A DNA stretch of 44,580 nucleotides from the NCBI GenBank assembly GCA_020717925.1, contig DYDL01000002.1, forward strand, positions 1-44,580. Reading direction: 5' to 3'. The notes beneath the pieces are model-generated. The model did not search any database. It saw only the letters and a program-made list of their open reading frames with translations, and was not told the origin of the DNA. Position 1 is the first letter of the stretch; each line of letters starts with the position of its first letter. A program made the position numbers and the translations under genes. This stretch comes from Desulfocapsa sp. Lineage in GTDB: Bacteria > Desulfobacterota > Desulfobulbia > Desulfobulbales > CG2-30-60-27. Shown piece after piece: positions 1 through 6,221 of the stretch.

Positions 1-54
1 ACCCCGATCCGCAGGTGGCCGAGATTGCCCGGGACATAATGCAGCCGAACCTGG

Positions 55-345
55 CTATCCCGCGGTAGCGTGCAACTTTAGACCAAGCGCCTTGACCACT
101 TTGAGAACCGTGTCAAAAGCGGGATTACGCTCTCCTGACAATGACTTGTACAGGCTCTCGCGCGAGAGGCCCGTTTCCACGGCAATCTGGGCCATGCCCT
201 TAGCACGGGCAATGTCTCCCAAGGCTTTGGCGATGAACAAGGCGTCACCGCCGCTTTCCTCAATGCAGGCGTCCAGATACAAGGCCATTTCTTCTTGGGT
301 TCTCAGATGGTCTGCGACATCATAACGGGTTGTTTTGAGTGCCAT
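55..345 (-). CDS. higA: HigA-type HTH antitoxin (addiction-module antidote family)
   Basis: 96-aa ORF. The segment 'GMAQIAVETGLSRESLYKSLSGERNPAFDTVLKVVKALGLKL' is the Xre-type HTH tail typical of antidote proteins encoded after HigB-like killers. It starts 9 nt after the toxin ORF stop. Confidence 0.8.
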   Translation of the reverse strand: MALKTTRYDVADHLRTQEEMALYLDACIEESGGDALFIAKALGDIARAKGMAQIAVETGLSRESLYKSLSGERNPAFDTVLKVVKALGLKLHATAG

Positions 346-354
346 GATCCGCTC

Positions 355-642
355 CTATTCCCGCGCCAGACGCAACGCGGTTTGAATGTCCTTGGTCTGC
401 GTACGCTTGTCGCCGCCCGCCAGCAATATCACCAGTTCCCAGCCACGCTGTACAAAATAGACCCGATATCCCGGGCCATAGTGAATGCGAAGCTCATAAA
501 CCCCTTCACCCACCGATTCAACATCACCGGGGTTGCCCGCCGCCAACCGTTCAATGCGCGCTTGCACCTTGGCACGCGCCCTTAAATCACGCAGGCCATC
601 AAGCCATTTGACAAAGATTTCAGTTTTCCGAATCTCCACCAT
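355..642 (-). CDS. higB: HigB/RelE-type addiction-module killer protein
   Basis: 'WLDGLRDLRARAKVQARIERLAAGNPGDVESVGEGVYELRIHYGPGYRVYFVQRGWELVILLAGGDKRTQTKDI' matches the killer-protein family pattern. The toxin-first order is typical of HigBA. The ATG at 642 is preferred over the TTG at 648 used by the ORF track. Confidence 0.8.
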   Translation of the reverse strand: MVEIRKTEIFVKWLDGLRDLRARAKVQARIERLAAGNPGDVESVGEGVYELRIHYGPGYRVYFVQRGWELVILLAGGDKRTQTKDIQTALRLARE

Positions 643-645
643 GAA

Positions 646-673
646 CAAATTGTAGCCATTTGGCTACAATTTG
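646..673. promoter_or_regulatory. Perfect 13+13 bp palindrome (2-nt centre), probable HigBA operator
   Basis: CAAATTGTAGCCA tt TGGCTACAATTTG lies immediately upstream of the higB start codon. Confidence 0.6.
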
Positions 674-720
674 TCAAAGAGACATTCTTGCCTGGGTTGG
701 TACCGGAAGTTGCCGAGTCA

Positions 721-749
721 TTGACATACCCCTTTGTTACACGTATACT
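721..749 (+). promoter_or_regulatory. Sigma70-like promoter for the RHH-antitoxin/mazF operon
   Basis: TTGACA (721-726), 17-nt spacer, TATACT (744-749). An AGGGAGG RBS follows at 762-768. Confidence 0.55.
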
Positions 750-774
750 ACACGCATAACAAGGGAGGATGCCG

Positions 775-1005
775 ATGCAAAAAAAATTGACCATAACCGT
801 GGATGAAGAGGTTTACACCGGCCTTTACAAGACCGTCGGCCCGCGCAAAATCAGCAAATTTGTGGAGGATTTGGTTCGTCCGTATGTAATTCGCCCTAAC
901 ATGGAACTATCCTACTCCCAGATGGCAAAAGACAAAAAACGGGAGGCCGAGGCCTTGGATTGGGCGGAAACAACTTTTCAGGACATTGCACATGAAAAGG
1001 GGTGA
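775..1005 (+). CDS. Ribbon-helix-helix type II antitoxin paired with MazF
   Basis: The N-terminus 'KKLTITVDEEVYTGL' looks like an RHH strand-helix. The gene overlaps the downstream MazF gene by 14 nt. The ATG at 775 has better RBS spacing than the ATG at 769. Confidence 0.65.
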   Translation: MQKKLTITVDEEVYTGLYKTVGPRKISKFVEDLVRPYVIRPNMELSYSQMAKDKKREAEALDWAETTFQDIAHEKG

Positions 1006-1315
1006 GGTCTGGTGGGTTAACTTCGATCCCAGCGTGGGCGGCGAGATCAGGAGAAAACGCCCGGCGGTGATCGTCAGCAACGATGCCGCCAACAAATTCC
1101 TCAATCGCGTGCAAGTCGTGCCGCTGACCAGCAAGACCGATCATCTTTATCCAAGCGAGGTCCGGGTTTTATTTGACGACAAAGAGAGCAAGGCCATGGC
1201 CGATCAGTTGGCCACGGTAAGCAAATTACGACTGTATAAACGTGCGGGTCTGATTTCCGATGCAGACATGCTCAGGATAAACGAGGCGATCAAAGTTCAA
1301 CTGGATATTTACTGA
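992..1315 (+). CDS. mazF: MazF/PemK family endoribonuclease toxin
   Basis: 'MKRGEVWWVNFDPSVGGEIRRKRPAVIVSND...VVPLTS' is the canonical MazF/PemK N-terminal pattern. Confidence 0.85.
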   Translation: MKRGEVWWVNFDPSVGGEIRRKRPAVIVSNDAANKFLNRVQVVPLTSKTDHLYPSEVRVLFDDKESKAMADQLATVSKLRLYKRAGLISDADMLRINEAIKVQLDIY

Positions 1316-1382
1316 CAGGCGGGCTGCCCCTAAGTCACTAAAGCCGGAGCGTCCCGTTTCTCCCTCTCGTTTCCCCTCTAAT

Positions 1383-2144
1383 TCAGCCTATTCTCCACGG
1401 CTCAGAAGCGTCCATCGTACGCCTCGCGTTTCGCGCCGCCTCGAAAATTGCCGAAGAAGCCGTCGCGGCGGCAGTGACTTCAAGAGCTACAACAACTTCG
1501 TGAAGTTTCAGGAGAACTGCCTCGACAAATTCCTGCCGCTTGTATCGTGACGGATGGCCGTGCAACATGAAACGACCAGTATCTGAATCGAACAGGTCCA
1601 TAGCCGTTTCATAAGCGCCATGCACATACGCGTCATAGGTCTTGTTTAGGAACCTATGCGTGGTCAGTAACTGCACCCGGTCCAGCTTCGCATTGTTAGC
1701 CTGCCGCACTTCTGCCTTCATCAACTCTTCGCGACTTACATAGTTGCCGCGCTCTGCCGCAGCAAACGCCTCGGGAGTTCGTGGCAAGGGGACAAAGTAC
1801 GCGTTTACAAAGCTTCCCACGGCACGCGGGAGTTCACCCCCACTATTCAGTGCCTCGCCTATTGCATTAATTTCGATACAGAAGTCGGAAACGATTCTCA
1901 ACAGGGAGGCGCACTCTGTTACATAGCCCAAATCTGCGAGCACGAGCGCCGCATGAATGCCACTCACTGCCCGGATGCACTTTCCAATCATGACTGCATG
2001 GGGTCTGTGTTCACGGAATTCCAGGCGAACAACCTCAGAACCCTCGACGAACTGACGAGGAGGCATTAGTGGAGCGGCGAGGCCGTCTACCCACTCATCG
2101 AGCTTGTCAACTAATGCACGCCCAAAGTCGAACCCAGCAGGCAT
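1383..2144 (-). CDS. Hypothetical protein, apparently all-helical, no family recognised
   Basis: 253-aa ORF with coding-like composition and no competing ORF. I recognise no motif in it. Confidence 0.55.
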   Translation of the reverse strand: MPAGFDFGRALVDKLDEWVDGLAAPLMPPRQFVEGSEVVRLEFREHRPHAVMIGKCIRAVSGIHAALVLADLGYVTECASLLRIVSDFCIEINAIGEALNSGGELPRAVGSFVNAYFVPLPRTPEAFAAAERGNYVSREELMKAEVRQANNAKLDRVQLLTTHRFLNKTYDAYVHGAYETAMDLFDSDTGRFMLHGHPSRYKRQEFVEAVLLKLHEVVVALEVTAAATASSAIFEAARNARRTMDASEPWRIG

Positions 2145-2253
2145 GGTGCCCTCGGAGGATGATTCGAGAAACTAGTCGGGGAAATGCCAACAAGTTGCCT
2201 TGAGAAGTGGCCGCCCCCTTCGGTACCAGCACCGACTGCCTTCAAAAAAGCCT

Positions 2254-2352
2254 TTACTCCTTCCAATCCGGCCGCAAATACAACTCCGTCAACTGCTTCC
2301 TGGCCACCGGCGCCGGGCGTCGGTGAGCAGGAAGGTGACTTTTTGGGAAAAC
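2254..2352 (-). pseudogene. Relic copy of the aspS 3' end (insertion scar / att-like direct repeat)
   Basis: 2254-2280 is identical to 4437-4463, the last 8 aspS codons plus TAA. The relic reads VARKQLTELYLRPDWKE*, against VARKQLTELHLRPDWKE* in the live gene. Similarity continues to about 2350 and includes a 1-nt indel. Confidence 0.8.
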
Positions 2353-2532
2353 TCCCATTAACCCTGCCTGTGTGCTGCCTATGCTGTTCAAGGTATGCTG
2401 CTGCGGGAACCGTTTTGCAGGCGCTTACAGAAAAGCTGACCATGGTAAGGGCGGGCAGCACCTTCGTTGACTTGTGAAAGATATGACCTCTTGCTCAGAT
2501 AGCCCCCGTGTCTTCTTTGGAGTGGTCTTTGC

Positions 2533-3078
2533 TTACGCAGCGGCTAAAAGTCCCCTCGCGGCATCCATCTGCCTATCGAGTTCGATCAGAGTCGTTTGCG
2601 CTTCTTCCAGGGAAACATGCGATTTCAGAGCATGAATTTTCTCTGCACGTTGCCTCTCTTCAACCTGCAGTTCCTTGGTGACGTAAAGGGCGGTGGCAAG
2701 TTTTTCCAGTTCCGCTACATTTTTATTGCCAAGCCAATGACCCAGGAAGGCAATTTTCTCTGCATAGCGGTTAATGGTTTTAGGGAAAGTTTCCTTAAGG
2801 TCAGCCCAAGCGCGCCCTGGCAGCATGCGTGGCCCATAAGGGTTCTGCGGCACGACCTTTAACAAGTTGTCGGCCCGGAGGCTGCCTAATTCTTCACTCA
2901 GATCAAAAGAATATGGTCCATGCTTATAAAGGATAAAATCGTGCCCAAGATCGCTTTCCAGCATCTGCTGCAAGAAATAGGTTGCTTTCTGGATATGGGT
3001 TTCTCCGCACCAACTACCATTATTTTCTAATTTTTCAACTAACGAAAGCAGTATTGCGACGCGAGCCATTCTTTTCAT
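2533..3078 (-). CDS. Small partner protein, Panacea (SocA/DUF4065)-like or YwgA-like
   Basis: Its ATG (3078-3076) overlaps the TGA (3077-3075) of the HD gene as ATGA. The core 'GETHIQKATYFLQQ...FILYKHGPYSFDLSEEL' resembles the Panacea/YwgA pattern. This is a motif-level judgement only. Confidence 0.6.
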   Translation of the reverse strand: MKRMARVAILLSLVEKLENNGSWCGETHIQKATYFLQQMLESDLGHDFILYKHGPYSFDLSEELGSLRADNLLKVVPQNPYGPRMLPGRAWADLKETFPKTINRYAEKIAFLGHWLGNKNVAELEKLATALYVTKELQVEERQRAEKIHALKSHVSLEEAQTTLIELDRQMDAARGLLAAA

Positions 3079-4382
3079 TGATCTTCCTCCTCTTCCATCC
3101 TCTGGATAATATCCTTCTTGTTTTCCGCGAGCCATCGGACGGCTTTTTCTTTAACCATGGGGCTGATGAAAACAGAGTCAACGACAATTGAGGGAATGGT
3201 AGGGATGATTTCGGATAAAACCCAAGATGAAACTATTCCATTCATGGAGGTAAGTACAGGAAAATCTATAATTCCGGCGTTTTTACTGTATTGGTCGCGG
3301 CGCACGGTTTCCGCGCCAAATTCAGCAGATACAGCTTCATAGATCATTTTCACGGATTCCAAATTGACTTTGATGTCATCCGGGTTTCTTTCATATAGCA
3401 GACGGTAATGCCCCCGATTACAGATAGTAAGGGCCGGCAGATGGCCTGGATTTTTTTCATCTGCCGCCGCTTTGCGGATTTCGGTGGTGATTTCGGCATC
3501 AGTGATCTGGAGATGACTGTGAATGTCGGTTGAATATTTCCCCCCTGGCAAGGTAGCAAGCAAAAACTCTTTCAAGTGAATGTCGTAAATTCTCCGGACC
3601 GGATGACAGTAAAGCTGGGTGAACATGAAGTGCCTAGCCAGAATTAGGGCTTCGGCGGAGTGCAGTCCACCCGCTTCCACCCCGAGGGTCGGTTCAGATT
3701 GGTGGTTTTCACCCGATGGCAGAATCCGCAACGTGTCGATCAGACGATAATGATCGAATTTTCCGTAGGCCACCCCGGCATGCAGCGAATCACGGAGTAA
3801 ATAATCAATACGATCGACACCAAAGGCATTGCCGGTGATGATTTCCGCAAGGATGGCCTCCCAGCTAGTGAATGTTGCCGTGGGCAATTCCTTCGGTCCC
3901 AAGGCCAGTTTGGCGATATGGTCACTCTTCAGGGGCGGTGTGAGAGAATTCCACAGACGTTCCATTTCCGGACTTTTGATCAAAACAAGGGTAAGGTCCT
4001 CGTGGGTTTTCTTATCGGGCAGCAATTCTTCGGCCGCATGAGAAAATGGCAAGTGGCCGATATCGTGACAAAGTGCCGCCATCCTAAGAACGCGCCGCCA
4101 ATATCGCAACTCGTCGGTGGCCGGAAAAATATCCCGGCAGCCCTCATGCCGGTTTTCCTCGTCGGTGATTACATCGAAAACCCGGCTGGCAAGATGCAAC
4201 ACTCCCAGGGAATGCTCGAACCGTCGGTGCGTAGCACCCGGGTAAACAAGATAGGTCAAGGCAAGCTGGTGAATATGCCGAAGGCGCTGCACAGGAACTG
4301 AATTGAGAACTTCACGTTCGGCGGTGTCGATTTTGACAAATACCGCAACAGGATCACGGATTTCGTGGAATCTTTTTGTCAT
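3075..4382 (-). CDS. HD-domain phosphohydrolase, SAMHD1/EF1143/YwfO-like (COG1078; probable dNTP triphosphohydrolase)
   Basis: Motifs present: 'RLRHIHQL', 'HRRFEHSLGVLHLA', 'AALCHDIGHLPFSHAAE' and 'VDRIDYLLRDSLHAGV'. Confidence 0.8.
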   Translation of the reverse strand: MTKRFHEIRDPVAVFVKIDTAEREVLNSVPVQRLRHIHQLALTYLVYPGATHRRFEHSLGVLHLASRVFDVITDEENRHEGCRDIFPATDELRYWRRVLRMAALCHDIGHLPFSHAAEELLPDKKTHEDLTLVLIKSPEMERLWNSLTPPLKSDHIAKLALGPKELPTATFTSWEAILAEIITGNAFGVDRIDYLLRDSLHAGVAYGKFDHYRLIDTLRILPSGENHQSEPTLGVEAGGLHSAEALILARHFMFTQLYCHPVRRIYDIHLKEFLLATLPGGKYSTDIHSHLQITDAEITTEIRKAAADEKNPGHLPALTICNRGHYRLLYERNPDDIKVNLESVKMIYEAVSAEFGAETVRRDQYSKNAGIIDFPVLTSMNGIVSSWVLSEIIPTIPSIVVDSVFISPMVKEKAVRWLAENKKDIIQRMEEEEDQ

Positions 4383-4436
4383 TATTTTCCCCGTTCTTGT
4401 TGTCGGGTTAGTGTCCTTTTGAGGAAGAAATTCTTT

Positions 4437-6221
<1,785 letters not shown>

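Follow-up and report, generated by a model that had tools for sequence, protein, structure and literature searches.

What is a gene for a SAMHD1-like phosphohydrolase, in tandem with a small gene of its own, doing directly behind aspS? The question is raised by a 44,580-nt stretch of DNA from Desulfocapsa sp. (assembly GCA_020717925.1, contig DYDL01000002.1, positions 1–44,580), referred to here as the window, in which two overlapping minus-strand genes follow hisS and aspS. The first (3075–4382) encodes a 435-residue protein of the HD superfamily, here termed the HD protein, and the second (2533–3078) encodes a 181-residue protein, here termed its partner. Both reading frames are present as reported in a preliminary description of this DNA, which had proposed that the small protein gates an enzyme degrading deoxynucleoside triphosphates (dNTPs) in a toxin–antitoxin-like or defence module.

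The comparisons set out below show that the two genes form a conserved, obligately paired and translationally coupled unit. Our preferred interpretation, to which we give slightly less than an even chance, is that the pair is a self-contained mobile conflict module of the type II toxin–antitoxin or abortive-infection kind, in which a dNTPase would be restrained by a binder resembling the C-terminal domain (CTD) of DarG.

Loci related to the window carry labels of the form L095 and were compared in two sets. The partner-selected set comprises the best 80 of 479 partner loci from a pattern scan with one genome per species, and the HD-selected set was gathered from HD homologues, 41 of them close ones with enough flanking sequence. 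Defence models were taken from PADLOC-DB v2.0.0.

The HD protein

The HD protein scores above the Pfam cut-offs for both HD (PF01966; 31.8 bits against 22), the match that the preliminary description had proposed to look for, and HD_assoc_2 (PF19276; 34.6 bits against 23.1). In a phmmer search of the PDB the best match is Aquifex Aq_1910 (2HEK; 5.5e-54), which aligns over nearly the full length (residues 6–414), and Enterococcus EF1143 (2O6I; 2.2e-28) and SAMHD1 (2.4e-18 to about 1e-17) are also retrieved. The motifs HRRFEHSLGV, CHDIGHLPFSH and DRIDYLLRD are present, as first reported, and at their key residues the family shows no variation. Across 18 diverse homologues (52–89% identity), the invariant positions, all of them retained in the window protein, are H52, R54, H57, H106-D107, H110, H115 and H127-E128, together with D190, R191, D193, Y194, R197-D198, Y258 and H260. 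We take these to be the counterparts of the residues that, in SAMHD1 and the dNTP triphosphohydrolases, bind the metal, form the H-E dyad and contact the substrate. The Pfam matches, the PDB matches and the invariant residues uphold the earlier placement of the protein in the SAMHD1/EF1143 family. Judged by its sequence, it is a catalytically complete phosphohydrolase of the SAMHD1/EF1143/Aq_1910 type, and the same features argue strongly for a dNTPase.

A Dgt-type dGTPase identity was considered and rejected, the relevant models scoring 16–30 bits against cut-offs of at least 152 (TIGR01353, 30.3 bits against 152; antiphage_dGTPase, 16.3 against 400). The PADLOC dGTPase model matches in part, over the HD motif region only (residues 51–122; 5.2e-7).

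The enzyme might instead act on another nucleotide, such as NTPs, alarmones or cyclic oligonucleotides, or be a nuclease. Catalysis varies widely within the HD superfamily, the closest solved structure, 2HEK, carries no annotation beyond that of a hypothetical protein, and the Dgt equivalog models lie far below their thresholds, all of which would suit such an activity. We nevertheless regard it as unlikely. The invariant residues agree with the motifs of SAMHD1/EF1143, the H-E dyad and the DxxDYxxRD segment among them, and the protein has HD_assoc_2, a domain characteristic of this lineage.

The partner protein

The preliminary description had likened the core of the small protein to the SocA/Panacea antitoxin-type domain and to YwgA. 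In Pfam searches at E<=10, neither the 181-residue reading nor a longer, 200-residue reading matches any family, Panacea/DUF4065 (PF13274) included. Direct membership of Panacea/DUF4065 was dropped on this ground. Pfam finds no macrodomain in the partner.

Two hidden Markov models (HMMs) relate the partner to DarG. Residues 6–156 are matched by the PADLOC DarG model (6.8e-10) and by NCBIfam antitoxin_DarG (2.5e-8), in each case through the DarG CTD only (profile positions 164–311 and 169–318, respectively); the NCBIfam score, 33.6 bits, is far under the 250-bit equivalog cut-off. An AF2 model of the partner, computed from an alignment of 62 sequences, has a mean pLDDT of 96. When it was compared with the PDB by Foldseek, the sole two significant matches were DarG CTD chains, B and D of the DarT–DarG complex 7YK3 (probability 1.0, TM 0.61–0.68, about 185 columns). 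At the sequence level the PDB yielded no more than a marginal DarG match to the partner (E 0.49), so that HMMs and a fold search were needed to make the link. The modelled structure shows the partner to have the fold of the C-terminal, DarT-binding domain of DarG. Its N-terminal half is winged-helix-like, ahead of a helical body, and MarR-type folds are among the low-ranking Foldseek matches. The HGP[YF]S motif of the partner family aligns with YGPYS of DarG, G54 being invariant and P55 near-invariant.

A connection with Panacea can be drawn by an indirect route. DUF4065 proteins have been described as homologous to the DarG CTD (PMC13621843, 2026), and the signature motif of Panacea is GPV (PMC8832971). 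The partner motif is of a similar type and may be its counterpart. A fold search of the viral models in BFVD returned a SocA-like Panacea protein as a weak match (E 0.28). This homology statement (PMC13621843), the GP[YV]-type motif and the one weak fold match together make an indirect link, and the partner is a distinct family that lies at best inside the Panacea superfamily. What survives of the original comparison is an antitoxin-like fold, that of the DarG CTD, and the name YwgA: JGI applies 'uncharacterized protein YwgA' to at least 15 of the best 120 partner homologues. A query with the Firmicutes sub-family, aimed at Bacillus YwgA, gave 30 close relatives, all without a name; a pair from this sub-family, at L158, combines an HD protein 40% identical to that of the window with a divergent partner.

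PADLOC-DB holds no dedicated model for either protein. The earlier suggestion to consult it yielded weak partial matches to DarG, dGTPase and PDC-M19A, the last to the N-terminus of the partner (3.9e-7), and no full-length match to one system.

A conserved, coupled gene pair

In 75 of the 80 partner-selected loci an HD gene lies directly upstream of the partner gene, and a partner lies downstream of 39 of the 41 close HD homologues. A divergent partner follows 18 more distant HD genes (31–44% identity). The spacing is tight: in the 56 intact pairs it ranges from -20 to +14 nt, with overlap in 39 and an overlap of exactly 4 nt, of the ATGA type, in 19. The window has this last arrangement, as noted earlier; at the minus-strand junction (3075–3078), GAAGATCAATGAAAAG, the four nucleotides ATGA are common to the HD TGA and the partner ATG at 3078, which predicts translational coupling. 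A 200-residue reading of the partner from an upstream ATG is not supported: the homologues all start at MKR..., and the database entry is the 181-residue form. The identities of the two proteins co-vary across loci (Mantel r 0.77, p 0.001). No natural HD–partner fusion was seen among the best 120 HD homologues, and clustering of all neighbouring open reading frames (ORFs) revealed no third conserved gene, only Hma genes recurring. In the co-occurrence survey, which the preliminary description had called for, the pair has the layout of a type II toxin–antitoxin system, a compact, predicted co-transcribed two-gene unit that moves horizontally.

The family is large: species-representative genomes contain 479 partner loci, and the clusters number more than 2,600 for the partner and more than 7,400 for HD. 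Its hosts include Desulfobacterota, Planctomycetota, Acidobacteriota, Bacillota, Nitrospirota, Methanothrix, Methanoperedens and anaerobic methanotrophic (ANME) archaea, among others, and are mostly uncultured anaerobes that are thinly represented in RefSeq. Identity is 47–59% whatever the taxonomy, and the distribution is patchy across bacteria and archaea; we therefore conclude that the genes have been transferred horizontally. In the literature we found no description of the HD–partner pairing, as the preliminary description had also stated, and no functional study of Bacillus YwgA or YwfO.

Some relatives depart from the two-gene arrangement. A clade of HD homologues (L144–L183; 35–44% identity), mostly from Chlamydiae, lacks a partner gene downstream and may represent a housekeeping lineage of the HD family that stands alone and is inherited vertically. 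At L073 (Methanothrix), the HD–partner pair is closely preceded, on the opposite strand, by a second, divergent HD paralogue (33% identity; 3444–4367, minus). On plasmid pMETHO01 of Methanomethylovorans hollandica (L106, 5998–6543), a distant partner homologue (26%, 6e-8) follows a gene for a family-B DNA polymerase, not an HD gene, which hints that the partner domain also pairs with other proteins.

The insert behind aspS and the mobility of the pair

The pair lies in a 2.1-kb insert bracketed by a repeat of the aspS 3′ end, in agreement with the insertion scar described before. A direct repeat relates 2253–2317 to 4436–4500 (65-nt core, 88% identity), and in BLASTN the repeat reaches a length of about 96 nt, with 82% identity. 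What is repeated is the 3′ terminus of aspS, stop codon included, and the two minus-strand copies are 2,183 nt apart: copy 1 (4436–4531) is the functional end of aspS, and copy 2 (2253–2347) is a displaced, non-functional end that forms the far border of the insert. Between them are the HD gene, the partner gene, a 54-nt leader and a 185-nt tail, and no other gene. Copy 2 also resembles (82%) the aspS 3′ end of L095, the closest available relative, which was found through an AspS-based locus search (AspS 94% identical in protein, aspS 90% in DNA). In L095 aspS is followed by unrelated genes, and HD and partner are both absent. An exact-match search of genome contigs for an empty aspS site found none.

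Composition sets the pair apart from its surroundings. The hand counts given previously, 44 G+C per 100 nt at 3361–3460 and 73 at 4561–4660, are exact, and by gene the G+C content is 0.498 for HD, 0.476 for the partner, 0.650 for aspS and 0.657 for hisS. Elsewhere in the family the G+C content of the pair is under that of its flanks in 46 of 50 loci, by 5.5 points on average.

The leader (4383–4435, minus), which runs from the aspS stop to the HD start, contains a GGGG(A)-type ribosome-binding site, and the tail (2348–2532, minus), from the partner stop to the scar, is non-coding; neither is conserved in relatives, and an Rfam search of window positions 1–4700 gave no match. Since the 54-nt gap between aspS and HD showed no consensus site resembling a promoter or a terminator, again as first described, read-through transcription from aspS into the cassette is plausible. 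The nearest cassettes elsewhere are 84% (L001) and 78% (L085) similar in DNA. This similarity starts 5 nt upstream of the HD ATG and stops at the partner stop (L001) or about 20 nt short of it (L085), and the pair adjoins hsdM in L001 and hsdS in L085, with aspS as neighbour in neither. In essence, then, what has been transferred is the two ORFs.

The duplicated target is not peculiar to the window. Among testable loci, 8 of 58 have direct repeats on either side of the pair; among shifted control windows, 1 of 93 does (Fisher p 0.002). Repeat-flanked loci, in unrelated genomes, are L012, L014, L022, L038, L041, L042, L047, L061, L076 and L077; their repeats measure 21–363 nt, and the duplicated targets include the 3′ end of aroA (170 nt), the 5′ end of der/engA (113 nt) and the 3′ ends of hsdS genes. 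No recombinase was found among the clustered neighbouring ORFs. We rejected a site-specific, att-type element with its own ends because the cassette showed no conserved ends at the DNA level.

At three Methanothrix/Methanosarcinales loci (L076, 360–3380; L041, 3750–7320; L038, 4400–6643), cassettes are stacked at the 3′ end of hsdS, each small cassette being followed by a copy of the last 60–90 nt or so of hsdS ('...FRGEL*'). The stacked small cassettes include a TumE toxin gene and HicB-like reading frames.

On the far side of the scar in the window lie two further toxin–antitoxin loci, whose presence had been correctly noted. A Pfam scan identifies, in one, a PemK/MazF toxin (986–1315, plus) that overlaps a 78-residue upstream ORF (769–1005), itself without a Pfam match, and in the other, on the minus strand, a Gp49/HigB-like toxin (355–648) with an HI1420-type helix-turn-helix antidote (55–345). 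The G+C content of window positions 1–4436 is 0.49–0.54, compared with 0.61 for the rest of the window. Directly beyond the scar is a 253-residue ORF (1383–2144, minus), which would have followed aspS before the insertion. Searches of Pfam, NCBIfam and PADLOC gave no match to it, and none of the related loci contains a homologue; lying outside the scar and lacking such homologues, it was rejected as a part of the module.

Defence neighbourhoods

In 16 of the 80 partner-selected loci the pair is located between a SNF2-helicase/NOV_C protein on one side and a DUF1156 methyltransferase and DUF499 ATPase on the other, which PADLOC identifies as HmaA (1.5e-198), HmaB (3.3e-124) and HmaC (4.6e-115). 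The Hma and pair genes often abut with 0-nt gaps, and at several loci they overlap or abut. The slot between HmaA and HmaB/C has been described as a hotspot for defence cassettes, in which phage protection was observed for 7 of 9 Hma-embedded cassettes tested and 96.7% of embedded genes have the orientation of the host system (Payne et al., bioRxiv 10.1101/2024.01.29.577857). Some 12 further loci adjoin other defence-type genes: type I restriction–modification (RM) and BsoBI RM genes, HerA-NurA with a methylase, AAA_21/AAA_15 ABC ATPases, STAND/KAP NTPases, a Schlafen-AlbA protein and a giant helicase-nuclease. The family thus occurs as an Hma-embedded cassette and also outside Hma; the window pair is not embedded in this way and stands alone, beside the two toxin–antitoxin modules.

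Orphan partners, 49–53% identical to that of the window, were observed at two such places. At L009 (4711–6543) the partner is directly downstream of an AAA/KAP/STAND-like NTPase and a Schlafen-AlbA protein, and at L043 (3311–6516) it is directly downstream of a BsoBI-type RM pair.

PrrC works together with EcoprrI, and on this model the pair could be an accessory that functions solely alongside modification-based systems (Hma/DUF499-type or type I RM), for instance a back-up effector freed on inhibition of the RM system. The insertion of the pair between HmaA and HmaB/C with overlapping or abutting genes, the hsdS or hsdM neighbour in L001, L012, L038, L041, L076 and L085, and the shared orientation of embedded genes reported by Payne et al. 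would all be expected of such an accessory. For at least 60% of the loci, however, the flanks that were retrieved contain neither an Hma nor an RM gene, and there is none among the largest ORFs of the window. Payne et al. hold, moreover, that cassettes also seen outside Hma act independently (bioRxiv 10.1101/2024.01.29.577857). We judge this explanation to be highly unlikely.

A second explanation would make the neighbours incidental and the pair a housekeeping regulator of dNTP pools, like Dgt or Bacillus ywfO-ywgA, with no role in conflict. Many loci do lie among metabolic genes, the pair being found, for example, between msrA and a HAD hydrolase gene in two related genomes; the window pair is co-directional with hisS-aspS; the solo Chlamydiae homologues look vertically inherited; and a Dgt enzyme promotes cell-cycle progression in Caulobacter (PMC12186491). 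Set against these points are the patchy spread across two domains of life at about 55% identity regardless of taxonomy, the absence of the pair from L095, the target duplication around the insert, the systematic AT shift, the frequent inactivation of HD, including by an insertion sequence (IS), and the 16 loci inside Hma operons. A housekeeping role of this kind seems to us decidedly improbable.

Overall, the evidence supports a pair that moves horizontally and is linked to defence genes. The alternative named in the preliminary description, a core operon inherited vertically and without island association, is contradicted by the mobility and by the defence neighbours. The strongest contextual evidence, Hma embedding together with flanking target duplications in many genomes, did not figure in that description.

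Decay of the HD gene and the proposed mechanism

In the partner-selected set the HD gene is intact in 56 loci, frameshifted, truncated or interrupted by an in-frame stop in 16–18, and absent despite sufficient flank in 4–5. Counted otherwise, HD is broken, split by an IS or absent in about 20 of 78 informative loci with an intact partner. In the HD-selected set there is one intact close HD gene without a partner and no more. This asymmetry is the pattern expected if the HD protein is harmful without its partner, and it is suggestive. As a proof of toxicity it was downgraded, with ascertainment and gene-length bias in mind.

Individual cases illustrate the forms that decay takes. At L028 (2615–5996) HD is split by an insertion of about 2 kb that carries a DDE transposase and an arylsulfotransferase-like fragment, and the partner is intact. 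Two Methanothrix loci, L062 (3963–6522) and L074 (874–2126), have the same neighbours, an AAA_21/AAA_15 ABC ATPase and a 175-residue gene; L062 has both HD and partner and L074 the partner only, at the same distance from the 175-residue gene, so that HD is apparently cleanly missing. L012, L015, L052, L058 and L073 have full-length HD frames with a single in-frame stop. The in-frame stops of Methanosarcinales HD genes could be pyrrolysine (UAG) codons instead of nonsense mutations.

In DarTG, the C-terminal domain of DarG binds the toxin DarT and blocks its substrate site. By analogy, the partner would bind the HD protein stoichiometrically and keep it off; the free enzyme would hydrolyse dNTPs, and DNA replication of phage and host would stop. 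Infection may free the dNTPase through loss or turnover of the partner after shut-off of host expression or, alternatively, through a phage factor that engages the winged-helix N-terminus of the partner. In the window, the cassette would have inserted at the aspS 3′ end and would be expressed by read-through from hisS-aspS. There is a precedent for the toxicity that the mechanism presupposes, the dNTPase of Clover being highly toxic without its restraining partner (PMC12265719).

A number of points weigh against a dNTPase held in check by its partner. The partner-selected set was built on intact partners, the HD gene is 2.4 times longer than the partner gene, and in the HD-selected set the 8 HD-only losses against 1 partner-only loss do not differ significantly from a length-proportional null (p about 0.2); several assemblies in the decay count are, moreover, long-read metagenome-assembled genomes. 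Seventeen distant HD proteins, mostly from Chlamydiae, have no partner. More than half of the loci lie among ordinary housekeeping genes without a recognisable defence neighbour, and the 10 largest other ORFs of the window, which were included in the PADLOC check, have no match. A tblastn search of a phage collection gave no match, and one of a plasmid collection gave a single distant archaeal match, beside a PolB gene. Substrate specificity cannot be read from the sequence. Depletion of dNTPs, HD toxicity, neutralisation and phage protection are predictions for every member of the family. Finally, the partner need not be an inhibitor and could serve as activator, sensor or DNA-binding subunit.

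This last point leads to a rival explanation that is, along with a non-dNTP substrate, the most serious of those considered: a two-subunit enzyme or sensor–effector in which the partner is a positive regulator or specificity subunit, both proteins are needed and HD alone is harmless. Activation of HD might, for example, follow when the winged-helix domain senses nucleic acid from a phage or a nucleotide signal. The winged-helix-like N-terminal half with its low-ranking MarR-type matches fits such a role, strict co-occurrence and co-variation suit any obligate complex, and the pair is built into Hma operons with 0-nt gaps; furthermore, enzymes of the SAMHD1 family are allosterically activated, at sites that can bind oligonucleotides (PMC7854603). 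The sole significant structural relative of the partner is, however, a toxin-neutralising domain. Orphan partners are common and intact partnerless HD genes rare, whereas a dispensable activator predicts the opposite. The coupled order, effector or toxin first and binder or antitoxin second, is that of darT-darG. On balance, we think that a positive regulator is unlikely, and an inhibitory partner remains our preferred interpretation.

A broader proposal, which we advance as a doubtful one, is that the pair is a widespread, hitherto unrecognised anti-phage system of anaerobic bacteria and archaea and would be the first in which a dNTPase of the SAMHD1 lineage is under a protein inhibitor of the DarG-CTD/Panacea superfamily, freed on infection. 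It holds in addition that the pair moves by an undescribed mode of insertion, as a bare two-ORF cassette with no recombinase or conserved ends that lands at gene termini (aspS, aroA, der and hsdS) with target duplications of 20–360 nt and stacks at hsdS 3′ ends.

Discussion

The pair is a new combination of known parts, a candidate that would join nucleotide-depletion defence to neutralisation of the DarG–Panacea type. It resembles DarTG in that its second protein matches DarG HMMs over the C-terminal, DarT-binding domain and shares the fold seen in 7YK3. It differs in lacking a macrodomain, so that enzymatic reversal of damage is not expected, and in having as the upstream protein an HD phosphohydrolase where DarTG has the ADP-ribosyltransferase DarT. 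With Panacea (DUF4065, PanA/SocA) it has in common a small antitoxin-type domain, which there is paired with unrelated effectors; its GP[YF] motif resembles the GPV signature (PMC8832971), but the partner has no PF13274 match at E<=10, and the main text of the Panacea paper contains no HD toxin.

The HD protein has the HD plus HD_assoc_2 architecture and the catalytic motifs of SAMHD1, EF1143 and Aq_1910 (the COG1078 lineage). In contrast to SAMHD1, it lacks a SAM domain, and in contrast to all three, its gene has a dedicated small downstream partner, is mobile and is often pseudogenised. Nucleotide depletion by an HD dNTPase, predicted here, is the principle of the anti-phage dGTPase (Tal et al. 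2022) and of Clover (CloA dNTPase and CloB nucleotidyltransferase; PMC12265719), and in Clover, too, the second gene restrains an otherwise toxic enzyme. Those enzymes are of the Dgt type, unlike that of the window, and the brake in Clover is a small-molecule signal from the nucleotidyltransferase, where a non-enzymatic, DarG-CTD-like protein is predicted here.

With the HEC and PDC candidates of Payne et al. the pair shares, in 16 of 80 loci, its place between HmaA and HmaB/C, and also the ability, like validated HECs, to stand alone. No HEC or PDC model matches the pair, apart from the partial match of PDC-M19A to the partner N-terminus. The likeness to ywfO-ywgA of Bacillus subtilis, putative neighbours according to the preliminary description, lies in the YwgA name that JGI gives to many close partner homologues. 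Clover is the closest functional analogue of the pair, and the DarG CTD is the closest structural analogue of the partner.

Nucleotide depletion is an antiviral strategy conserved from bacteria to humans. The means by which dNTPases are silenced are known in few cases, the allostery of SAMHD1 and the small-molecule brake of Clover. If the mechanism proposed here is true, a protein brake derived from the antitoxin superfamily of DarG and Panacea would add a third means, and the toxins neutralised by this antitoxin fold would extend to a metabolic enzyme. The integrase-less insertions with long target duplications pose a separate question, on the movement of small defence cassettes. The family is concentrated in poorly studied anaerobes and in methanogen/ANME-type archaea, where few defence systems have been tested, and its recurrent embedding in Hma provides an immediate experimental handle.

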